Assembly (NCBI GenBank): GCA_044070495.1
Contig: JBIPSI010000015.1
Span: 83,215-147,214, forward strand
DNA: 64,000 nt
From: Spirulina sp.
GTDB taxonomy: Bacteria > Cyanobacteriota > Cyanobacteriia > Phormidesmidales > Phormidesmidaceae
Direction of reading: 5' to 3'
The notes under the pieces were generated by a model. It was not told where the DNA came from. It worked only from the letters and a program-made list of their open reading frames with translations, and did no database searches. Of this stretch, positions 22,087 through 36,453 are shown one piece after another. Every line of letters begins with the position of its first letter. The first letter of the stretch is position 1. Position numbers and translations under genes: made by a program.

Positions 22087-22455
22087 CTAGTCAACTCCAG
22101 AGTTCAGCAATCTGAAGCGATGGCCATCTTTGGTCACAACCACAAAGGCCTTCTGCAACGCTTCCATCGAGTATTGGGTGATGACTCGGCTCAACTCCCG
22201 GTGTACGGCATCCATTGTGGATGGCACCATCCGTAGGTAAATAACTCCTGTGCCCTGGGATCGCACAAAAACCAAAGTGCCATAGTCTCGATCCCGAGTG
22301 ATCAAGATTCGCCCTTGGGCTTGAGCTAAACTGAGGATGGTTTCATCTGTGGCTCGTGCCATTCCCAGGGATGAAACACGAACTAGGTCGTAGCCCTTGT
22401 CTTGCAAAAATCGTTCTGTCTTGGCATAGACATCTTGATCCAATAAAAACCTCAT
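22087..22455 (-). CDS. DUF5615/Mut7-C-like PIN-domain toxin
   Basis: MRFLLDQDV...ATDETIL...RILITRDRDYG. Confidence 0.8.
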   Translation of the reverse strand: MRFLLDQDVYAKTERFLQDKGYDLVRVSSLGMARATDETILSLAQAQGRILITRDRDYGTLVFVRSQGTGVIYLRMVPSTMDAVHRELSRVITQYSMEALQKAFVVVTKDGHRFRLLNSGVD

Positions 22456-22682
22456 ACCGCAGACGGAACAAGATTGATGTCCTCAGCCGCAATTAAAGCA
22501 ATGGCATAACGTAGACAAGCTTGGATATCTTCAACGGATAAGTCTGGATAGTAGTCGGTGGTAATTTCCCCAAAGGAAAGCCCTTCAGTCAACAGTTCCA
22601 GCACGTTTTGTACCGTAATGCGCGTCCCTGCCACACAGGGTTTTCCAAAGTGAATCTGGGAATCAACTGAGATTCTATTCAT
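22452..22682 (-). CDS. DUF433 antitoxin
   Basis: RISVDSQIHFGKPCVAGTRITV...YPDLSVEDIQACLRYA; ATGA overlap with PIN gene. Confidence 0.88.
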   Translation of the reverse strand: MNRISVDSQIHFGKPCVAGTRITVQNVLELLTEGLSFGEITTDYYPDLSVEDIQACLRYAIALIAAEDINLVPSAV

Positions 22683-22920
22683 ATCAGTACCCAATCCTAT
22701 TGAAAGAAACGTCTTCAAGCCGTTGGATTTAATCAAAAAAACTGAATACTGAAACCGTGGGTTTTAGGAAAGGAGAATGCTCCATTGGTCACTATCCAGC
22801 GGGTTTGCGATGCATGTAGTTTAGCGTAGGGTACAGGGCTTAAACTACAGATGCGATTCAAGGTCTTGCAGAAGACTCTGAGTGCGGCTTTCCTCGTCGT
22901 GAAACCTCGGTTCTGCTGAT

Positions 22921-26102: not shown

Positions 26103-26369
26103 CTACGGAAAATAACGATAAAATTCGCGACGGTGCATAACACGCACAAAAAACACGATATCTTCTTCTAAAAACAATCCAATTCGATAGTCGCCTACCC
26201 GGATACGAAAGTAATTATCACCACCTTTTAGCTTCTTGAGGTTAGAGATCTCATCTAGACGCTCTGTCCGCTCTACAGACTCAATGACTTCTTTGATCTT
26301 TCTGAACAAGATCTTGTCGCTAGCCTTTCTCAGATCTTTCTCAAAGGTCTTGCGAAATTCAACCTTCAC
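26103..26369 (-). CDS. RelE/ParE-family toxin
   Basis: LKKLKG...YFRIRVGDYRIG...HRREFYRYFP. Confidence 0.9.
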   Translation of the reverse strand: MKVEFRKTFEKDLRKASDKILFRKIKEVIESVERTERLDEISNLKKLKGGDNYFRIRVGDYRIGLFLEEDIVFFVRVMHRREFYRYFP

Positions 26370-26575
26370 TCGTCAGACTCCAGGATGCTAAAAATAGCTT
26401 CCCGACTAACCGCATCAGAGTCTTTACCCTCATCAATGGCTTTAACCAAGGCCAAATCTTCCAGAGCTTCGGCCACCAGATCTTGAAATAAGTCGCGACG
26501 CTCCTGAAAAATCTCAAGAATTGCAGATTTAATCAACTCCTTGATTTGAGTTTCACTAAGGCTTGACTCCAGCAT
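26366..26575 (-). CDS. Putative antitoxin
   Basis: 69 aa acidic, EDLALVKAIDEG...VSREAIF; GTGA overlap with toxin. Confidence 0.8.
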   Translation of the reverse strand: MLESSLSETQIKELIKSAILEIFQERRDLFQDLVAEALEDLALVKAIDEGKDSDAVSREAIFSILESDE

Positions 26576-26618: not shown

Positions 26619-29291
26619 CTAGGGTGGGCCGTGCTTATCACCCTGTACCAGGTCGCCAGCTACATTATCGCCCTTACCATGCTGGTGGGTGTTGTCTTGC
26701 TTGATGTTGACGTGGATTCCCCCATAGCGTTCTTCAATGTCAATGCCGCGTTCTTTCATGTCGCGTTGGCGGCGGGCTTCCACAGATTCGTAGCCATCGA
26801 GGAGTTGGCGCAGATTTACCTTAATCCGCAGTTTGCCGATGGGGTAATCGACAATGCCCATGCCCTCTAATCCCAAAAGCTCTTGGTAATCCAGGGGCGG
26901 ATGGTCGGGATGGTTGGGGACGGGTACCCATTCGGTGACTTCTAAATCGGCGAAGCTCTTGTGGATGCGGGTGAAGGTGTCGCGGATGAGGGAGAGGAAG
27001 ACGCGGCGGGTGGTGTCTCGTCCGGCGATGGCGATGAAGATTTTTTTGTCTTCGGGGTCGGCTTTGATGCGGGCCATGTTGTAGACCTCGTCGCCCTCGC
27101 GGTAGGCCAGCATGACACCGCTGCGCCAGTGGATGTGGTTGTGGATTTTGTCGTGGCTGAGGACGATGAACCGCGACAGCACGCTCTCCGGCAGGATGCG
27201 GTAGTGGTACTGAAATTCTAGGGTGTCGCCCTCTAGGCGGATGTCTTCCGGTTCTTCCTTGGGCAGCAGACCGGGGATGAGGAAGCGAGGGCAGGGGCAA
27301 TCGGGCAGCGCAAAGCAGAGCTGAAATTCCTGCATCAGTTCGGTGAGGTAGCGGTGGCGTTCGGGGGGGTAGCGCTCTGGAGGCAGTACGCGGCTGAGGT
27401 CATCGTAATCGAGGAGGCCTTTGCCCTGGGTTTTGAGGGTGTCGTCGCTGAGTAGGGCGTAGATGCCCGTGGTCACCCAGTCGGGGTTGAGGACGTTGGT
27501 GTTTTGCAAAAAGGAATGGTTGCGAAAATTGAGCACCAGGCCCAAATTGTGCAGCAGGTCGATCAGTTGGGTTTGGTTCTGTTCTTCGGGAATTTGGTTT
27601 TGGTAGCAGATGCCGATGTATTCGCCGTAGCTAATAAAGTCTTTATCCAGGGCTTCAAGCTGTTCTTTGACCTGGAACCAGGAGAGGGGCAGCAGGTTAT
27701 AGACTTCTCGCAGTTTGCCGACTTCTGCGGTAATGGTGGCCCGCAGTTCTTCAATGCCTTGGCCACTCTGGCAGGAGGTTTCTAGGATGGCGCAAATGTT
27801 GGGATATTTTTGCCGCAGGGCTTTGCGGTTGATGTCTAGGGGTTGTTCGTCGCTTTTGTTGCCGACGATGATGACGGGCGATTCGCCGCCAAAGCTTTGG
27901 ATGAGTTTGAGCCAATATTCAATGCGGTTTTCTTCTTCGCTGGTGCGGCAGTTGCAGACGAGAATGTAGAGGCTGCGTTTGGTGAGAAAAAACTGGTGGG
28001 TGGCGTGGTAAATTTCTTGGCCGCCAAAGTCCCACACGTTGAGGCGCACGTCTTTGCTGTTGACATGAACGCCCCACTCTCGAACAGCAAGCCCATCGGT
28101 TTGAGATTCGTTGGGATTAAAGGCTCCCTCCATAAGTTGTTTGATTAGAGAAGTTTTGCCCACACTGCCTTGACCAACCAGCAGCATTTTAGCTTCGTTA
28201 AGAGGCTTAACTTCACCACTGCGGAGCTGGCGCAGATAGCCAAAGATGTCCTCCACAGAGCCGGGATCTTCATGCAGTTTCGACGATCCTAAAATTTCTG
28301 GGGAAATAGGCAGCGGATTTCGCCTTACATCTAAAGTTTTGAGCTTAGGTAGAGTTTCAAGCCATTCAGGACACTCAGAGATGTGGTTGATTTTTAAGTC
28401 GAGATTCTCCAGCCTAGAAAGTTGTCTAAGGCAGTCCGGAATTGTCGTTATTTGATTACCATAAAGTCGAAGACCAGTCAGATTAGAGAGAGATGTGATG
28501 CAATTTGGAATGGCCGTAATTTGATTATTTTCAAGCCAAAGTTCAGTCAGATAGTTGAGTTCGCCTATACAATTTGGAATTATCTTGATTTGATTGCCAC
28601 CGAGCCAAAGCATCTTCAGACTTTTGAGTTCACCTATAAAATTCGGAATCATTTCAATTTGATTACCATATAGCCAAAGTGTCGTCAGACTTTTGAGTTC
28701 ACTAATACAATCTGGAATTGTCTTGATTGGATTACCACTCAGCCAAAGTGTCATCAGGCTTTTGAGTTCACTAATGCAATTCGGAGTTGTCGTGATTTGA
28801 TTGCCACTCAGCCCAAGCATCGTCAGACTTGTGAGTTCACCAATACAATTCGGAATCGTCGTGATTTGGTTAAGATCAAGTCTGAGCGCTGTCAGATTTG
28901 TGAGATCACTAATGCAATTCGGAATCATCTTGATTTGATTGCCATGGAGCAAAAGTGTCGTCAGACTTGTGAGTTCACCAATGCAATTCGGAATCGTCGT
29001 GATTTGGTTAAGATCAAGTCTGAGTACTGTCAGATTTGTGAGTTTACTGATGCAATCTGGAATTATTGCTATTTGATTTCTCTCGAGCCTGAGTAACATC
29101 AGTTTTTTTAGTTCGCTAATGCCATCCGGAATTGTCGCGATTTGATTGCTACTGAGGTTGAGCTTTTGGAGATGAGTAAGTTTGCCAATTTCGGGGGGCA
29201 GTTCCGTCAACCCTTGGCCAGAAAGGTCTAGCTCTGTCCAGCCCTCGGCGGCGGCTTGGTCAATCAGTTGCAGCAGCTCATCTTGGGTCAT
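26619..29291 (-). CDS. LRR-Roc-COR (Roco) GTPase
   Basis: About 13 LRRs of 23 aa, P-loop GQGSVGKTS, WDFGGQE, VGNKSD, COR motifs LHNLG..VLNPDW; alternative ATG at 29300. Confidence 0.93.
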   Translation of the reverse strand: MTQDELLQLIDQAAAEGWTELDLSGQGLTELPPEIGKLTHLQKLNLSSNQIATIPDGISELKKLMLLRLERNQIAIIPDCISKLTNLTVLRLDLNQITTIPNCIGELTSLTTLLLHGNQIKMIPNCISDLTNLTALRLDLNQITTIPNCIGELTSLTMLGLSGNQITTTPNCISELKSLMTLWLSGNPIKTIPDCISELKSLTTLWLYGNQIEMIPNFIGELKSLKMLWLGGNQIKIIPNCIGELNYLTELWLENNQITAIPNCITSLSNLTGLRLYGNQITTIPDCLRQLSRLENLDLKINHISECPEWLETLPKLKTLDVRRNPLPISPEILGSSKLHEDPGSVEDIFGYLRQLRSGEVKPLNEAKMLLVGQGSVGKTSLIKQLMEGAFNPNESQTDGLAVREWGVHVNSKDVRLNVWDFGGQEIYHATHQFFLTKRSLYILVCNCRTSEEENRIEYWLKLIQSFGGESPVIIVGNKSDEQPLDINRKALRQKYPNICAILETSCQSGQGIEELRATITAEVGKLREVYNLLPLSWFQVKEQLEALDKDFISYGEYIGICYQNQIPEEQNQTQLIDLLHNLGLVLNFRNHSFLQNTNVLNPDWVTTGIYALLSDDTLKTQGKGLLDYDDLSRVLPPERYPPERHRYLTELMQEFQLCFALPDCPCPRFLIPGLLPKEEPEDIRLEGDTLEFQYHYRILPESVLSRFIVLSHDKIHNHIHWRSGVMLAYREGDEVYNMARIKADPEDKKIFIAIAGRDTTRRVFLSLIRDTFTRIHKSFADLEVTEWVPVPNHPDHPPLDYQELLGLEGMGIVDYPIGKLRIKVNLRQLLDGYESVEARRQRDMKERGIDIEERYGGIHVNIKQDNTHQHGKGDNVAGDLVQGDKHGPP

Positions 29292-29303
29292 GGGTGGCAT
29301 CTC

Positions 29304-29732
29304 TTAGACAATCAGATGAATCCAGGCGTAGGCATTACCCACAGAATTAACAAGGCGACGATCTGCCGTCCATAACTCAGCAGTTAATGTTTCAGCCAAG
29401 GCCAAATAGTGAGCGTCATAGGTCGCTGGCAGTGAGAATTGGTTTGCGATTTACCAAGCTCGCTTGTGTAAACTGGCATCACCATAAAGCTCAATATTTA
29501 AGCCAAGAGCAATCTCTAAGAACCCATGGGCAATCTCTAGAGAAAACTGCCCTGCTTTTGCCAGTCTATACAGGGCATTTGTAACTTTATAGAGAATAAG
29601 ACTAGGCGCTGAAATGCTTGTTCCAGCTTCTATCCAGCCATTCCAAAGAACATGATAGGGAGATTCTTCTGGATCTGAAATCAACAGCCGTACCACAAAG
29701 CTGGCATCCACACACACGTTATCTAGGCTCAT
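29304..29732 (-). pseudogene. VapC/PIN toxin pseudogene
   Basis: VDAS...; in-frame TAA at 29451-29453, after which the frame continues IANQFSLPATYDAHYLALAE...LWTADRRL to TAA 29304. Confidence 0.85.
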
Positions 29733-29992
29733 AGGATTGGAGGGTTCGACAAGATGCCGCTGAGAACAGTTTTATCGCGCTGCTCCCGTTCTTGGTGAAT
29801 CAACTCTGCGACGGGTAGGTCAGCCATGTCGGCTTCGTTAGATTGGCGCAGGCGTCGATGGAGGCTGCGTAGACGCTTTTGGCTGACTTTCCAGGCGGCT
29901 TTGCGATCCAGCTTGGTATACAGCAAGCTCCGTTCCGCCTCAGAAAGGGACTCGATGACCTGAAGAAGGGAGTCTACTAACTTTGTGTTCAT
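29729..29992 (-). CDS. Putative antitoxin (cassette 4)
   Basis: MNTKLVDSLLQVIESLSEAER...ELIHQEREQRD; overlaps the PIN start. Confidence 0.7.
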   Translation of the reverse strand: MNTKLVDSLLQVIESLSEAERSLLYTKLDRKAAWKVSQKRLRSLHRRLRQSNEADMADLPVAELIHQEREQRDKTVLSGILSNPPIL

Positions 29993-30006
29993 GGCCAAAG
30001 GTGCAG

Positions 30007-30180
30007 TGACTAAACCTATTGTAAGCTCCCTAGATAGTTAAGCTCCGTCCAGCCCTCGGCGGCGGCTTGGTCAATCAGTTGCAGCAGCTCGTCTTGGGTC
30101 ATGGGCGTGGGGGTGGCGGGTGTTTTTCCATTTATAGCGGCGTTTAGGGGCTGTTGGCGAGGTCAGAAACCCGGTTTCTT
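30007..30180 (-). repeat. Array repeat D: Roco promoter, stranded Roco 5' end and cassette head
   Basis: ATG 30102 reads MTQDELLQLIDQAAAEGWTEL, identical in protein to the Roco start; followed by ACTATCTAGGGAGCTTACAAT. Confidence 0.92.
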
Positions 30181-30195
30181 GAGCAGGTGCACTAC

Positions 30196-30594
30196 CTACC
30201 AGAGAACCTTGATGATTTCCGCGTCTCGCAGCATGGTGTCGCGGCTAATCAGGGTTGCTTCATAGAGTTTTGCGGTGGCCGCAATGATGCGGTCATGGAT
30301 ATCCCAGTGGCTAGGTAGCTCCAAAAGGCGTTGAAACGTGGGCAAATCGAATGGCACAATCGCGAAACCGTCGCCAGCTTCCAGACGAGCCATGACCTCT
30401 TCTATGCCAACCGGGACTCTCTGTCGCTGGGCAATGTATGTCAGTTCAGCCAGAACTAGCGTGGATACCAACACCTGAGCATCCCCTACCTCCGCAGCAC
30501 TCAGTACCTCGTGGGCCAAAGGTGAAAGCCGTGAGTCTTCAGCAATGAACCACGCTAGCGCATGGGTATCTGCAACAAAGGTATCCATGGACAA
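30196..30594 (-). CDS. VapC/PIN toxin (cassette 3)
   Basis: VADTHALAW...LAEL...DIHDRIIAATA...LISRD. Confidence 0.88.
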   Translation of the reverse strand: MSMDTFVADTHALAWFIAEDSRLSPLAHEVLSAAEVGDAQVLVSTLVLAELTYIAQRQRVPVGIEEVMARLEAGDGFAIVPFDLPTFQRLLELPSHWDIHDRIIAATAKLYEATLISRDTMLRDAEIIKVLW

Positions 30595-30599
30595 ATGGG

Positions 30600-30794
30600 C
30601 TATTCCTCGTAGGCATGGCTAAAAACGGCTCGCTGTGCCGCTGCAAAGTCATCCTCTGAAAAATCCACCCCTCGCCACAGCCCTTGAAGCTGAGTGGAGC
30701 GCGGCCCCACCTGGGTTTGCTGGAGAACCGTCTGCCGTAGATGTTCCAACTCTTGCTGCAAAGCCTCGATGCGGATAAGGAGGTAATGACTCAT
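30600..30794 (-). CDS. Putative antitoxin (cassette 3)
   Basis: 64 aa directly upstream of PIN; LQGLWRGVDFSEDDF. Confidence 0.7.
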   Translation of the reverse strand: MSHYLLIRIEALQQELEHLRQTVLQQTQVGPRSTQLQGLWRGVDFSEDDFAAAQRAVFSHAYEE

Positions 30795-30832
30795 ATCACG
30801 TCTGGCCCACGAATATTCTGAAAAAGCTGGCT

Positions 30833-31016
30833 CTATTGTAAGCGCCCTAGACCGCTTTGCCGGAAAGGTCTAGCTCTGTCCAGCCCTCGGCGGCGGCTTG
30901 GTCAATTAGTTGCAGCAGATCAGCTCATCTTGGGGCATGGGCGTGGGGGTGGCGGGTGTTTTCCCAGTTATAGTGGCGTTTAGGGGCTGTTGGCGAGGCC
31001 AGAAACGGGGCTTCTT
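30833..31016 (-). repeat. Array repeat C: Roco promoter, frameshifted Roco 5' end and cassette head
   Basis: ATG 30938, 5-bp CTGAT insertion; homology through GAGCTAGACCTTTCCGGC, then TCTAGGGCGCTTACAAT. Confidence 0.92.
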
Positions 31017-31023
31017 GGTAAAG

Positions 31024-31290
31024 CTAGGCTGTTTGGGCAATGGGTTGACCGAGATCATACAGAAACTCTGGTGCAAAGTCTGCCCCGTTGGGCCATTCAA
31101 TAGTGCTGGTCTCAGGATTTAGAAAGACCTGCTTAAAGTATTCGACATCCTTCAGGGGTGCAAAAATTTCGCCGTACAGTTCTTGGGCTAGATCAACATC
31201 CACGATGGCCTGGTTGTTAAACGTTAGTCTAAGTTTGTAGTTATCTAAATACTCAACCGTCTCAACATGAAGAAACATCGTTAACCTCAT
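31024..31290 (-). CDS. DUF2442 protein (cassette 2)
   Basis: YKLRLTFNN...GEIFAPLKD...TIEWPNGADFAPEFLY. Confidence 0.88.
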   Translation of the reverse strand: MRLTMFLHVETVEYLDNYKLRLTFNNQAIVDVDLAQELYGEIFAPLKDVEYFKQVFLNPETSTIEWPNGADFAPEFLYDLGQPIAQTA

Positions 31291-31548
31291 TTACTGCAAA
31301 GGCTCTACTTCATTCAGTGCTTTTCTCTGCCGTGCCAGTTCCCAATTTGCTAGAAGTTCTGTCTGGTGTAAGTCTAGCCATTCCAACACCATCCGCAAAG
31401 CCCGCTTAGACATTCTGCCTTCAACCACCCCAGTTTCTATTTCCACAATAATTTCCTGTTCCTGATAACGAGCATGAAAATGAGGTGGTTGATGATCGTT
31501 ATAGTTCATAAAAATAACGATGCCGTAGAATCGGCTAATGGTCGGCAT
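31291..31548 (-). CDS. DUF4160 protein (cassette 2)
   Basis: MPTISRFYGIVIFMNYNDHQPPHFHARY...ELLANW. Confidence 0.9.
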   Translation of the reverse strand: MPTISRFYGIVIFMNYNDHQPPHFHARYQEQEIIVEIETGVVEGRMSKRALRMVLEWLDLHQTELLANWELARQRKALNEVEPLQ

Positions 31549-31563
31549 AGCTAATGCCTCAAA

Positions 31564-31682
31564 TGACTAAGTCCATTGTAGGCTCTCTAGATAGTCCTGC
31601 CAGAAAGGTCTAGCTCTGTCCAGCCCTCGGCGGCGGCTTGGTCAATTAGTTGCAGCAGCTCATCTTGGGTCATGGGTGTGGG
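31564..31682 (-). repeat. Array repeat B: stranded Roco 5' end and cassette head
   Basis: ATG 31673 reads MTQDELLQLIDQAAAEGWTELDLSG; then ACTATCTAGAGAGCCTACAAT. Confidence 0.92.
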
Positions 31683-31709
31683 CAAATGAAGAGGTGGAAA
31701 TTGGAAAAA

Positions 31710-32147
31710 CTAAGACAAATTTTCAAGATCTGCTAAGTCTTGAAGTCGGCCTGAGGCACGCTTATTAAGCTTGAGATTTTCTAGGTCGATAAAGTTAACC
31801 ACAATGCCATCCATCTCCACCGTCAAACGATTGGTATAGCAGGTGGCAAAGTCAACACCATCTGGCGTTGTAATAAGATCAATAAGACTCGGAGGATAAC
31901 CTAATTGAATCACCTGATCTGGAGTCAAAAAGTCCTCTGCTTGAAGGTTCAGTGATGCGAATCCAAACTGCTTTAGAGCTTTTAGCATATTGGCAGCATT
32001 CTCAGGCGTCATCTCAACCCAAATATCAATATCTTTGGTGTAGCGAGGATAGCCATGCAAAGCCACAGCATAACCGCCGATTACCAAGTAATTAACCTGA
32101 TTATCGTTTAGTGACTGTATAAACTCTTTGAAATCTTGGTTCAGCAC
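31710..32147 (-). CDS. Nucleotidyltransferase-family protein (cassette 1)
   Basis: YLVIGGYAVALHGYPRYTKDIDIW...KRASGRLQDLADLE. Confidence 0.85.
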   Translation of the reverse strand: MLNQDFKEFIQSLNDNQVNYLVIGGYAVALHGYPRYTKDIDIWVEMTPENAANMLKALKQFGFASLNLQAEDFLTPDQVIQLGYPPSLIDLITTPDGVDFATCYTNRLTVEMDGIVVNFIDLENLKLNKRASGRLQDLADLENLS

Positions 32148-32304
32148 CGTATTTCCAGCAATGATACTGTTGGCGAAGATTTTCTAGCGCCCCAATTCTA
32201 TCGATATAGGGCTGTGTTCGCCAGTAAGTGGCCTCTTGCTTAGGCGCATGAAGGCTAGCCTTAGTTACGACGGCTTGTATAGTACGCCGTTCGGATTCTG
32301 TCAC
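32101..32304 (-). CDS. Small partner protein of the nucleotidyltransferase (cassette 1)
   Basis: GGAGGA RBS before GTG; YWRTQPYIDRIGALENLRQ...FQRVY; overlaps the NTase start. Confidence 0.65.
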   Translation of the reverse strand: MTESERRTIQAVVTKASLHAPKQEATYWRTQPYIDRIGALENLRQQYHCWKYGAEPRFQRVYTVTKR

Positions 32305-32320
32305 GGTCAATCCTCCATAC

Positions 32321-32474
32321 AGTACCTAAGACCTATCTTAATCCACCGCCTCGGCGGCGGCTTGGTCAATCAGTTTCAGCGGCTCATCTTGGGTCATGGG
32401 CGTGGGGTGGCGGATGTTTTCCCAGTTATGGCGGTATTTAGAGGCTGTTGGCGAGGTCAGAAGCCCGGTTCCTT
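32321..32474 (-). repeat. Array repeat A: Roco promoter, decayed Roco 5' end and head
   Basis: ATG 32397 reads MTQDEPLKLIDQAAAEAVD*; upstream 80 bp homologous to repeats C and D. Confidence 0.9.
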
Positions 32475-32486
32475 GGGTAAGCGGGT

Positions 32487-32536
32487 CTACCAGAGAACCT
32501 TGATGATTTCCGAGTCTCGCAGCATGGTGTCGCGGC
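32487..32536 (-). pseudogene. 50-bp remnant of the cassette-3 PIN gene 3' end
   Basis: 49/50 identical to 30196-30245 (RDTMLRD(A/S)EIIKVLW*). Confidence 0.9.
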
Positions 32537-32652
32537 ACGGATCTAGCCCCACGTAGCCTGCGTCGAATCCGCCCCCTACCCCGTGAAACTTTAGTTCGCC
32601 CATGTACGTCCAGATAACTCTAATCTTGAAAGATAGGTCTTTGGCAGCCACC

Positions 32653-34766: not shown

Positions 34767-35165
34767 CTAGGACGGCTGATCCGGGGAAGGGGTGGCCAAA
34801 AACTGACGCAGGCGTACCATCACCAAACTTTGGCCAAAGCTGATGGGCAGTGCTGAAACCCCCTCCAGTTGGGACTGCACCCAGCGATCCCCCCAGTACC
34901 ACTCGTGGAAGCCGTCAATGCCACCGGAGAGCACCAGGCGCAGGTGATTTTGCGACAGTTCCTGAACTTCGTGGCGGATTTCCACAGGGCCGAAGTAGCT
35001 GTGGAAAACGAGATCACTGTGGAGGGCATCGGGCAATCCAATCTCGAAGCGCTGGGGCCACAGCCATTGCCGAAACTGATCGGGCTGGAGCAAGCTGGCC
35101 TGAATTTGCCCAGCGGCGGCATCAACTTCAATACGGAGGCGGCTTTGCTGAAAGGTGCCAATCAT
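34767..35165 (-). CDS. Conserved cyanobacterial hypothetical protein
   Basis: MIGTFQQSRLRIEV...GIDGFHEWYWG, coding-like composition. Confidence 0.7.
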   Translation of the reverse strand: MIGTFQQSRLRIEVDAAAGQIQASLLQPDQFRQWLWPQRFEIGLPDALHSDLVFHSYFGPVEIRHEVQELSQNHLRLVLSGGIDGFHEWYWGDRWVQSQLEGVSALPISFGQSLVMVRLRQFLATPSPDQPS

Positions 35166-35301
35166 AAACCGTTGGGAAAAACCGCAACAACACCTCCCAG
35201 TATGCCAAAAGTCCATCCAAGCTTCAGCCCAACCCACTAGGCAAAGGAATCACGCCCCTACCCACCGACTCCCCAAGCGAGGAGACCTCGCCCCTACCGA
35301 T

Positions 35302-35400
35302 CCATCACCGTCCCACCTTCCCACCCCATCACCGTCCCACCTCCCCACCCCATCACCGTCCCACCTTCCCACCTCCCCACCTTCCCACCTTCCCACCTGT
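35302..35400. repeat. Short tandem repeat tract (8/24-bp units)
   Basis: CCATCACCGTCCCACC(T/C)TCCCACC x3 plus TCCCACCT units. Confidence 0.75.
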
Positions 35401-35472
35401 CACCCCACCCACCCACACTGAACCCCTTGTTTGCTATAACTGTCCATTGATCCCACCGGATATGAGGCGTCC

Positions 35473-36453
35473 ATGATTGAAGTTGAGCACCTCGGTAAAA
35501 CCTATGGCTCCACCCCGGCCATTCGCGATGTCACCTTTGAGGCCCAGCCGGGGGAGATTCTAGGCTTTTTGGGGCCAAACGGGGCAGGCAAAACCACCAC
35601 CATGCGGATTTTGTCGGGCTATCTGCCAGCCTCCGAAGGTACGGCCCGGATCGCGGGCTACGATGTCCACACCGATTCCATGGCGGTGCGGCAGCGGATT
35701 GGTTATTTGCCAGAATCGCCGCCGCTGTATCCGCAGATGACGGTGGAGGGGTATTTGAACTTTGTGGCAAAAATTAAGGGCGTTCCGGCGGGAATGCGGC
35801 CCCAGCGTGCCCAAATTGCCATGGAGCGCTGTGGGTTGTTGGATCGGCGGACGACGCTGATTCGTAAGCTGTCGAAAGGCTATCGGCAGCGGGTGGGCAT
35901 TGCCCAGGCCATCATCCACGACCCGCCTGTGATCATTCTGGACGAACCTACCGTGGGCTTGGATCCTCGCCAAATCAACGAAGTCCGCCAGTTGATAAAA
36001 AGCCTCGCCGGAAGCCACACCATCATCCTCTCCACCCACATTCTGCCGGAGGTGAGTATGACCTGCGACCGGGTGACGATCATCAACCGAGGTCAGGTGG
36101 TGGCGACGGATACGCCGGATAACCTGACGGCTCGCCTCGCCGGAGAAATGGCCTACGAGGTGGAAATTAAGGGCGACGTGAACCAGGCCCAACCCCTGCT
36201 GACCCATTTGGCCGAGGTGCGCCAGGTGGAAATCCTCAGTCCCGATCATTTGCCCGAGCATCATCATCGTTTGCGGGTGACGGGAAATCAGGACGCTGGA
36301 CTGGGCCAAGCCATTGCCGCTAGCCTCGTCCATGCGGGCCTAGAACTGCACGAACTGCGCCGCCAGCAGGCCACCCTAGAGGACGTGTTCCTCAACCTGA
36401 CCACCACCGAACCCAGTGCCCCCCCAGTGCCCTCCGTGGAGGCGACCCGATGA
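35473..36453 (+). CDS. ABC transporter ATP-binding protein (GldA-like)
   Basis: GPNGAGKTT, LSKGYRQRVG, LDEPTVGLDP. Confidence 0.92.
   Translation: MIEVEHLGKTYGSTPAIRDVTFEAQPGEILGFLGPNGAGKTTTMRILSGYLPASEGTARIAGYDVHTDSMAVRQRIGYLPESPPLYPQMTVEGYLNFVAKIKGVPAGMRPQRAQIAMERCGLLDRRTTLIRKLSKGYRQRVGIAQAIIHDPPVIILDEPTVGLDPRQINEVRQLIKSLAGSHTIILSTHILPEVSMTCDRVTIINRGQVVATDTPDNLTARLAGEMAYEVEIKGDVNQAQPLLTHLAEVRQVEILSPDHLPEHHHRLRVTGNQDAGLGQAIAASLVHAGLELHELRRQQATLEDVFLNLTTTEPSAPPVPSVEATR

Follow-up and report, generated by a model that had tools for sequence, protein, structure and literature searches.

Toxin–antitoxin cassettes and stranded gene starts upstream of a Roco gene in Spirulina: a probable product of repeated insertion with long target duplication

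How do small toxin–antitoxin (TA) operons come to be stacked at the start of a single host gene, when no enzyme that could have moved them is found among or beside them? The question is raised by a locus in Spirulina sp. (assembly GCA_044070495.1, contig JBIPSI010000015.1), where four two-gene cassettes lie upstream of a gene encoding a Roco protein and are punctuated by truncated copies of that gene's own 5' end. The window, that is, the whole stretch of DNA analyzed here, comprises 64,000 nucleotides (nt) and belongs to a draft genome of 5.3 Mb in 74 contigs (G000). TA and small defense modules are among the most mobile bacterial genes, and most of their chromosomal copies have no known vehicle. 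A preliminary description of the locus had proposed that the cassettes are mobile units, each of which carries a replacement start for the Roco gene. Homologues of the cassettes in other genomes speak against this proposal, and the array has probably been built by repeated rounds of insertion with long target duplication (ILTD), with no enzyme encoded in the cassettes or nearby.

Five copies of a gene start and four cassettes

The intact Roco gene is encoded on the minus strand at 26619..29300 (-), as an open reading frame (ORF) of 893 aa from the ATG at 29300 with Pfam matches to LRR_8, Roc, COR-A and COR-B. The start that is conserved in relatives, MTQDE, corresponds to the ATG at 29291 and has the sequence MTQDELLQLIDQAAAEGW. 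We refer to the first 122 nt from this ATG (29170..29291, (-)) as the leader. The five copies of the Roco 5' end that had been described are all present: the intact one at ATG 29291, and stranded ones at ATGs 30102, 30938, 31673 and 32397, which belong to the modules that we label D, C, B and A. The likeness to the intact gene extends over 49 nt in copy A, about 76 nt in B, about 81 nt in C and 62 nt in D; the copies do break off as described, but over a range of 16 to about 27 codons instead of 16 to 25. Copies A, C and D also share about 80–95 nt upstream of the ATG (up95), in agreement with the roughly 80-bp upstream region reported for three of the copies. Up95 aligns with the native upstream region of the Roco gene in the relative G024, and the stranded copies thus hold Roco's own promoter region. 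Repeats of 50–200 nt with 85–99% identity within 3.3 kb cannot have arisen by chance. Had the leader been a generic repeat dispersed through the genome, the initial interpretation would have lost its basis, but it is not: in a blastn search of the five leader copies against the 5.3-Mb genome all matches fall at the Roco locus, with the exception of one 32-nt match on another contig (E 3e-4) that is at chance level, and up95 is found nowhere else in the genome.

All parts of the array are co-oriented with the Roco gene on the minus strand. Cassette 4 (29304..29998, (-)), whose stop lies only about 12 nt from the intact leader, consists by its translation of a putative 89-aa antitoxin gene (29729-29998) and a PIN toxin pseudogene (29304-29732). 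The latter is broken by a single in-frame TAA at codon 94; its orthologue in Nodosilinea sp. LEGE 06152 (G012) is intact, encodes 142 aa and scores as PIN (PF01850) in Pfam. Next follows module D (30005..30195, (-)), which is composed of up95 (30103-30195), 62 nt of stranded leader (30041-30102) and a junction motif, jD, that contains TACAAT (30005-30040). Cassette 3 (30196..30794, (-)) encodes a putative 64-aa antitoxin (30600-30794) and a PIN toxin (30196-30594; Pfam PIN, E 1e-15). It is followed by module C (30833..31020, (-)), with up95 (30939-31020), a stranded leader whose frame is shifted by a 5-nt insertion (30858-30938) and the motif up to TACAATAG (30833-30857). In cassette 2 (31024..31548, (-)) Pfam identifies DUF4160 (31291-31548) and DUF2442 (31024-31290). 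Module B (31559..31673, (-)) consists of about 76 nt of stranded leader (31598-31673) and the junction motif (31559-31597); it matches the intact copy at 98.75% over 80 nt, upstream bases included, and lacks up95, with only about 9 nt alike upstream of its ATG. Cassette 1 (31710..32310, (-)) pairs a 69-aa ORF (32101-32310) with a DUF6036-type nucleotidyltransferase assigned by Pfam (31710-32147). The left end of the array is formed by module A (32349..32546, (-)), which contains the last 50–60 nt of a PIN gene (32487-32546), up95 (32398-32486) and stranded leader (32349-32397). These final 50–60 nt of a PIN gene are common to modules A and D (98%, repeat family D7). The motif TCTAGRGNGCYTACAATRG follows each of copies B, C and D, and all three of its occurrences in the genome are at the Roco array.

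Pfam matches and translations agree with the description of four unrelated two-gene cassettes. Judged from these, all four are putative TA-type pairs, with PIN in cassettes 3 and 4, the DUF6036 nucleotidyltransferase and its small partner in cassette 1, and DUF4160 with DUF2442 in cassette 2; as in type II TA systems, two small genes are adjacent or overlap, and one has a known toxin or antitoxin domain. The four inserts measure 0.6–0.8 kb, below 20 kb and without a linked mobility gene, and the direct repeats on either side of each cassette span 49 to about 200 nt, all above 30 bp. The GC content is 42–50% in cassettes 1, 2 and 4 and 56–62% in the flanks; the cassettes had been described as AT-richer, and this holds for these three but not for cassette 3 (about 54%). 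The sole promoter-like consensus in the array is CTGGCA-17-TACAAT at module B. Since the promoter scan returned 3 promoter-like sites versus 4.1 expected, TACAAT is best called a candidate promoter element. The terminator scan found no terminator-like site, in the array or otherwise, versus 4.0 expected, and Roco is placed behind a row of TA operons without one. No Rfam family matched between 24 and 35 kb of the window at E values up to 0.1.

The array had been described as free of any integrase, transposase or attC-like site, and this is borne out. No integrase or transposase domain was found in a first set of 14 ORFs, nor in the 28 others, each 90 aa or longer, that lie between 6.9 and 52 kb of the window, and no IntI with an attI site lies beside the array in the same interval. 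Six single-strand DNA folds of the modules gave z values of +0.5 to +1.3 relative to shuffled sequences, so in this folding test an attC-type hairpin is no better supported in the modules than in shuffles. Several of the junctions are bridged by independent metagenome contigs at 99–100% identity, which argues that the array is not an assembly artifact.

Empty, single and multiple states in relatives

The genomes available for comparison are all drafts except two. In 16 of the 38 other genomes drawn from the genus the Roco orthologue simply begins with the 122-nt leader, which is present in 62 of 151 genomes of the family, this genome counted. Truncated extra copies beside a full one occur among the relatives only in 'Phormidium' sp. 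FACHB-1136 (G005), Nodosilinea sp. LEGE 06152 and G018. 'Phormidium tenue' FACHB-1052 (G007) and G024 represent the empty site: their Roco gene is preceded by native upstream DNA and zero cassettes. In Nodosilinea sp. LEGE 06152 and G018 the same site is occupied, and the order is native upstream DNA, a decayed stranded start (alike to about +80), the TACAAT motif, cassette 4, and a fresh start about 12 nt behind the PIN stop. In the former genome, module D, cassette 4 and Roco of the window have a collinear counterpart in this block (76% over 961 nt), whose divergence is at the genome-wide level: identity is 79% in an amylase gene and 76% in the body of Roco. Cassette 4 is shared collinearly with these two distant genomes at a divergence typical of the genome, which makes this cassette, the nearest to Roco, the oldest of the four. 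Only the closest relative shares cassettes 2 and 3, which lie upstream, inside copies of a module that was already stranded. This does not support the assumption that each insertion strikes the intact gene in its first codons.

In G018 the Roco gene is split into three ORFs. A 332-aa ORF directly upstream of the stranded leader of this genome (L015; G018:C1, about 1929350-1930350) looks by eye like an IS110-family transposase.

The closest relative is 'Phormidium' sp. FACHB-1136 (amylase 86%). It shares cassette 2, module C and the cassette 3 antitoxin with the window (about 91% for cassette 3) and is without cassette 4. Its segment of cassette 2, module and cassette 3 antitoxin is present twice, around a 2.4-kb insert, as a 408-nt duplication with 95% identity. 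Directly before its Roco gene lies an ORF for an MNT-type nucleotidyltransferase (NTP_transf_2; contig C179, L013 8683-9018 (-)), which is fused in frame to the first 35 nt, or 12 codons, of the Roco leader. It represents a fused gene located at the border of a long duplication.

Further states of the locus are found in metagenomes, whose junctions we followed in Logan contigs; of the sequencing runs, none was listed as RNA and none contained more than 0.21 of the sampled words. A strain that is 99–100% identical elsewhere has 711 other letters where cassette 3 lies, and a cassette has thus been replaced between strains. Contigs of two other runs skip cassette 3, although their sides are short and the evidence weak, and one contig joins the cassette 4 antitoxin to cassette 2. 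Two contigs from sediment (L060, L061), neither of which includes a Roco gene, contain an MNT/HEPN-like pair, 68 nt of leader and the first part of cassette 4; a diverged version of the leader (MTHDKFLQQIVQ...) heads the MNT ORF of both. A scan of genome contigs with a degenerate leader pattern returned six stretches, namely four known records and one copy each in Leptolyngbya sp. FACHB-60 and in a Shackletoniella metagenome-assembled genome; the pattern, matched exactly, is too strict for a survey of arrays. The array varies in number, content and order while the modules persist. The initial picture of an expandable, strain-variable array anchored on the start of a host gene is thereby supported, as relatives differ in the number and content of their cassettes and the junction modules are conserved.

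The distribution of the cassettes outside the Roco locus reveals which parts belong together. Homologues of cassettes 1 and 2 in G005, G003, G019, G016, G023, G028 and G022 match the ORF pair or part of it, and the leader is never matched. In 'Phormidium' sp. FACHB-1136 a homologue of cassette 1 (86%) is found elsewhere in the genome, at a locus unrelated to Roco, where another 80-nt sequence flanks it on both sides. This shows that the repeats belong to the target and not to the cassette, and is at odds with cassettes that carry a replacement Roco start. A similar arrangement is found in another genus: G028 has a row of four TA-type cassettes, among them a cassette 1 homologue, separated by three copies of an 86-nt sequence. 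The target-derived duplications at the Roco gene vary in extent. The leader breaks at +35, +49, +62, about +76, about +81 and about +88, the upstream limits are at about -3/-12, -9 and about -90, and the lengths range from 58 to 408 nt among events.

From these limits the events can be reconstructed in part. Around cassette 1 the duplicated part of the leader appears to run from about -9 to +49, with copy A to the left and copy B to the right, which would explain why module B is without up95. For cassette 4 the bracketing duplication would be about -3/-12 to about +88 of the leader. Cassette 3 seems to be bracketed by up95, leader and motif up to TACAATAG in modules C and D; it would then have entered the region upstream of cassette 4, just past the probable -10 box there, and duplicated some 200 nt of the module that had been stranded. 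The motif of module B continues like that of module D past TACAATAG, so cassette 2 probably entered before cassette 3.

The same scar at other genes

The preliminary description had called for a search of the genome for TA pairs flanked by duplicated gene starts. A search for direct repeats recovers at least 11 further loci where TA or defense cassettes lie between duplicates, and the same scar is found at the 3' ends of other genes; the architecture is thus not specific to Roco. In a blast of the genome against itself, direct repeats of 40–500 nt that are at least 85% alike and 0.3–6 kb apart yielded 77 pairs in 38 loci. Twenty-one of these were annotated, 20 with Pfam plus the Roco locus, and two more with ORF lists only; the remaining 15 are by their coordinates mostly tandem or paralogous repeats. 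In 12 of the 21, Roco included, a TA, restriction-modification, NACHT or nuclease cassette lies within a repeat of 54–351 nt, and at several of the 12 the repeat is a copy of the start or stop region of the neighboring gene. Besides the Roco 5' end, these clear cases comprise the 3' ends of uvrA (175 nt, 95%; RHH/DUF433 + DUF5615), of dnaE-N (104 nt; XisH/XisI and UPF0175/DUF3368), of an ABC transporter gene (104 nt; antitoxin + RelE) and of a TPR gene (three copies; a ParE-like pair and DUF433/DUF5615). The others are on contigs C1, C30 and C46, on C5 (342 nt, a whole MNT gene), on C51 (PIN, and also an Eco29kI restriction enzyme with a C5 methylase between the repeats), on C18 (HTH-NACHT) and on C7 (351 nt; a PD-(D/E)XK endonuclease). 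The rest of the annotated loci are three complex TA islands (C20, C16, C34), three loci with the same scar around other cargo (a GT2 glycosyltransferase, a CN hydrolase, unknown ORFs) and three that are something else (the template and variable repeats of a retroelement, C38 and C13).

The uvrA gene illustrates the same range of states as Roco. It is matched in 38 of the 41 genomes of the genus, and nearly all of them align only from the stop codon inward, without any cassette. In the Spirulina genome the gene is followed by one cassette and then by a stranded gene end of 175 nt. In G005, G132 and G019 this cassette is found further out, and 3–4 kb of different cassettes lie between it and uvrA. 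The stranded uvrA ends of G005 and G132 measure 41–186 nt; all of them finish at the uvrA stop codon and their start points differ. A second gene-end copy was not seen in the stretch fetched from G019. One duplication in G132 extends into the first 105 nt of an RHH antitoxin gene, with the result that the cassette shared with G000 encodes an RHH-DUF433 hybrid. This hybrid antitoxin, FitA-like RHH joined to DUF433, is encoded at G000:C44 2106-2489 (-) (L031) and in G132 (L056). In the latter genome its RHH N-terminus also heads the neighboring RHH + PIN cassette, and the boundary of the duplication is at the domain junction.

At dnaE-N the distance between the repeats is 2.26 kb in G000 and about 0.66 kb in G132, and the alignment with Nodosilinea sp. 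LEGE 06152 finishes at the stop codon. At the ABC-transporter locus the orthologues in G005, G132 and G019 match the gene only, the downstream flank not being conserved. In the TPR gene (L030, G000:C9:10144-10160) the present last codons differ from the tail that the two stranded 3' copies preserve; the final 14 or so nt of the gene, stop codon included, seem to have been replaced by the latest insertion.

Two candidates that resemble these loci in the self-blast were rejected. On the contig of the window but outside of it, a reverse transcriptase (RVT_1) is encoded beside a gene with the FGE-sulfatase fold (G000:C15:500-4500), and a 122-nt direct repeat pair at C15 (1942-2063 and 2995-3116, 90% identity) resembles the template/variable repeat pair of a diversity-generating retroelement. 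On contig C3 (G000:C3:53890-58749) five repeats of about 90 nt with a tRNA T-arm-like hairpin (GGGCGGGAATCGAACCCGCCC) each stand just upstream of a gene in a co-oriented row; by eye the row looks like phage or plasmid genes, and we regard the repeat as an intergenic element of such a region and not as a cassette scar.

Within the window, the other side of the Roco gene is a second variable cassette site, separate from the 5' array. A RelB-like antitoxin and ParE toxin pair assigned by Pfam (26103..26575, (-)) lies there, between the Roco stop and a conserved downstream gene (MANTIYQHGSGDN... protein), and in relatives the slot is filled by different small genes; we detected no long repeat flanking the pair. 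A DUF433 + DUF5615 pair (22087-22736, (-)) is located between the EF-Ts gene and an Exo_endo_phos gene, with no flanking repeat of at least 40 nt in the genome self-blast. A tandem array of CCCACC type with 8-nt and 24-nt units (35278-35421, family D2) is situated between the ORF 34767-35237 and an ABC-transporter ATPase gene at 35473.

The genome also encodes an integron-type integrase, on contig C33 (G000:C33:338-1309; TIGR02249, 466.7 bits versus a cut-off of 265), and the match contains one TGA. The check for a co-occurring recombinase that had been suggested is therefore negative near the array and positive for the genome. The contig begins 337 nt upstream of this gene, which leaves no room to see a cassette array. 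Truncated copies of the first 150–185 nt of the gene (79–94% identical) are found in four places (both ends of C28, C60:1-672 and C23:35092-35346), and about 300 nt of its upstream sequence are dispersed over at least six contigs.

Insertion with long target duplication and its rivals

The preliminary description knew of no name for this architecture, but a closely similar one has been published for restriction-modification genes. Nobusato et al. (2000, Gene 259:99) is reportedly the founding paper on ILTD. The term was given by Kobayashi's group to insertions in which a restriction-modification unit, devoid of mobility genes, lies between direct repeats whose length varies but exceeds 30 bp (PMC2853133). 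In the tables of Furuta, Abe and Kobayashi (2010) the lengths of the repeats run from 46 to about 420 bp; the empty site of a relative has one copy of the repeat, which often spans a translation start or stop, so that the target gene survives, occasionally as a gene fusion, and one case is from Microcystis, a cyanobacterium (PMC2853133). As far as that account goes, the mechanism is left open, with DNA breakage by the restriction enzyme suspected, and a cycle resembling that of a virus is proposed, in which the units insert, are amplified on the repeats and are released (PMC2853133). The treatment of ILTD in the review by Mruk and Kobayashi (2014) ascribes it to restriction-modification systems only (PMC3874152).

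The Roco array shares with these cases an addictive unit without mobility genes, variable repeats of more than 30 bp, an empty site in a relative, duplications that span a start or stop, and gene fusions. It differs in that the cargo here consists of type II TA pairs and other small defense or selfish genes, and not of restriction-modification units. It also differs from them in its iteration at one site, with arrays of up to four or more cassettes, in later events that duplicate earlier scars, and in the number of loci per genome, at least 12 here. PIN and RelE-type toxins act on RNA, and DNA breakage by a restriction enzyme therefore cannot be the trigger for their cassettes. We found no report of TA cassettes with long target duplications or of TA arrays anchored on gene ends in a literature search that left subscription journals mostly aside.

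Other known systems resemble the array in part. Integron arrays, and attC clusters without an integrase, are compact, co-oriented, promoter-poor and strain-variable, frequently contain TA cassettes and are expressed from an upstream promoter. The Roco array is likewise a strain-variable stack of compact, co-oriented, promoter-poor cassettes at one site, but its separators are a host promoter and first codons instead of attC hairpins, it has no adjacent IntI, its breakpoints vary, and other gene ends are used elsewhere. In the orphan toxin-immunity modules of rhs and cdiA, displaced gene-end fragments accrete, it is thought, by homologous recombination on the conserved part of the gene. There too stranded fragments of an anchor gene punctuate an array of toxin/antidote pairs; however, the anchor protein itself supplies the toxin as its C-terminal domain, and it is 3' ends that are left as fragments, whereas the anchors described here (Roco, uvrA, dnaE) are unrelated to the free-standing cassette operons, and at Roco a 5' end is stranded. 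Integrative elements that bring a replacement gene end (prophages at icd, SCC composite islands at rlmH, integrase-less cis-mobilizable elements) rely on a recombinase of the tyrosine or serine family and on a fixed core. They too leave the target gene intact, with the displaced end stranded on the far side and tandem accretion punctuated by the repeat. In contrast to these elements, we find no recombinase and no fixed core, the cassettes are only 0.6–0.8 kb long, and the copy of the target is not carried by the cassettes elsewhere.

In the explanation that we consider probable, each entry of a promoter-poor TA cassette would leave 35–410 nt of target on both sides. The first event, that of cassette 4, would have duplicated about -3 to +88 of Roco, stranded the native promoter and the old start upstream, and put Roco directly behind a TA operon. 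Later cassettes would have entered the stranded module of promoter, leader and TACAAT and duplicated it, and because the module was duplicated with each later entry, every operon and Roco itself would have kept a start and a promoter. Selection would set this geometry, as the start or stop of the target gene must stay and a resident antitoxin must not lose its promoter; insertions that cut an antitoxin from its promoter or break the target would be selected against, so that the survivors duplicate exactly those parts. The duplicated modules could then serve RecA-type homologous recombination, by which cassettes are deleted, duplicated, reordered and exchanged between strains. This would account for the precise losses in G007, G024 and G005, the duplications in G005 and the swaps in the metagenome contigs.

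The step that makes the duplication could take either of two routes, between which we see the chances as nearly balanced, with homology-anchored capture favored. In this capture, DNA of a relative that contains the gene end and a neighboring cassette would integrate by a single crossover after circularization, or by one homologous and one illegitimate join. One boundary should then fall at the end of natural homology and the other at a random fragment end. The uvrA copies, with the boundary at the stop codon fixed and the other variable, fit this pattern, and capture also fits the published link with natural competence. Alternatively, the cell itself may make the duplication, through fill-in at a staggered break or through template switching during replication. 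This second route accommodates more readily the new C-terminal tail that the TPR gene has after one insertion.

A different possibility is that a dedicated site-specific system is at work, in which mobile cassettes carry a replacement 5' end of the target, much as integrative elements have a gene end within attP, and a recombinase of, for example, IntI or Xer type inserts them in trans. The compact, co-oriented cassettes with a conserved 19–35-nt motif at their 5' boundary, all three matches of which are at the locus, the strain variability of the arrays, which is like that of integron arrays, and the IntI-type integrase on C33 would all be expected if this were the case. However, this explanation is unlikely, as leader breakpoints from +35 to about +88 differ among the copies and leave no single crossover core, the cassette homologues elsewhere are without the leader and lie between other repeats, unrelated gene ends are used at the other hotspots, the modules show no attC-type hairpin in the folding test and no recombinase is encoded within 20 kb. 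The shared motif is explained by descent, since it is part of the region upstream of cassette 4 in Nodosilinea sp. LEGE 06152 and G018 and was copied with the stranded module. That transcripts of TA operons were reverse-transcribed into staggered nicks, as in target-primed reverse transcription with its variable and sometimes long duplications, is very improbable. The homology between cassettes at different loci does start 2–4 nt before the first start codon and stop 1–2 nt after the last stop, as expected for a transcript-sized unit, the target duplications are variable, and the genome has reverse transcriptases, that of the diversity-generating retroelement being on the same contig. Nevertheless, such tight boundaries arise equally from the fast decay of non-coding flanks, there is no poly-A or other 3' signature, duplications reach 350–410 nt, and multi-cassette inserts and inserts of 2–4 kb occur as well. 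We also know of no bacterial enzyme that performs such an insertion of TA transcripts. Finally, there may have been no insertion at all, if a unit of promoter, leader and TA pair was duplicated in tandem and then diverged or had its genes replaced, or if the modules were mis-assembled. The genome is a 74-contig draft, tandem duplications are common, and G005 does have a duplicated segment of cassette 2, module and cassette 3 antitoxin. This explanation is already largely refuted and hardly credible, because the four cassettes belong to unrelated families and are not diverged copies, relatives with zero and one cassette reveal the polarity of insertion, and the junctions are bridged by independent assemblies (G005, G012, G018) and by metagenome contigs at 99–100% identity.

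Several observations weigh against repeated insertion with long target duplication as the full explanation. The process is read from its scars alone, and the events are old, with repeat copies 85–99% identical, so that the junctions are no longer pristine. For cassettes 1–3 no relative with the exact pre-insertion state was found, but only partial states in G005 and in metagenome contigs, and several of the joints in the latter rest on sides of 26–36 nt. To explain which lineages have cassette 4 and which do not, one must invoke either multiple precise losses or multiple transfers. The order of entries reconstructed above does not account for the PIN-gene end at module A, which, like the missing up95 at module B, needs extra events. 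The stranded leaders A, B and D are 96–99% alike to the intact gene, more than the age of cassette 4 predicts; this excess would need gene conversion or selection. A test of the capture route, which asked whether Roco near cassette 4 is more diverged than its flanks, gives no sign of import for Nodosilinea sp. LEGE 06152 and G007 (Roco body 79%, flanks 78%); that for G018 and G024 (88% and 84%) gives no signal either way. The IntI-type integrase on C33, moreover, leaves room for an enzyme acting in trans.

The Roco locus and at least 11 others preserve the scars of cassette entry, and the best-mapped duplications span a gene start or stop. Within one genus these hotspots exist as empty, singly occupied and multiply occupied alleles (the Roco 5' end and the uvrA and dnaE-N 3' ends). 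If our explanation is right, ILTD would be extended from restriction-modification genes to TA cassettes and could iterate into integron-like arrays; and as it is seen with TA cassettes, a restriction enzyme cannot be its general cause. These loci offer a natural system in which the mechanism of ILTD could be tested. The host genes bear consequences as well, in that Roco stands behind TA operons, a leader-MNT antitoxin fusion is found in relatives, and an RHH-DUF433 hybrid is encoded at the edge of a uvrA duplication. More tentatively, it is possible that conserved gene ends serve filamentous cyanobacteria as docking sites that need no recombinase, a "poor man's integron", where cassettes are captured by homology, the duplicates allow them to be excised, stacked and swapped, and TA addiction enforces their retention and filters for insertions that duplicate the promoter. 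If this were true, it would provide one general and testable mechanism for the 25-year-old puzzle of ILTD and would explain how chromosomal TA and defense genes travel without vehicles, with host genes wired behind TA promoters and leader-antitoxin fusions as side effects.

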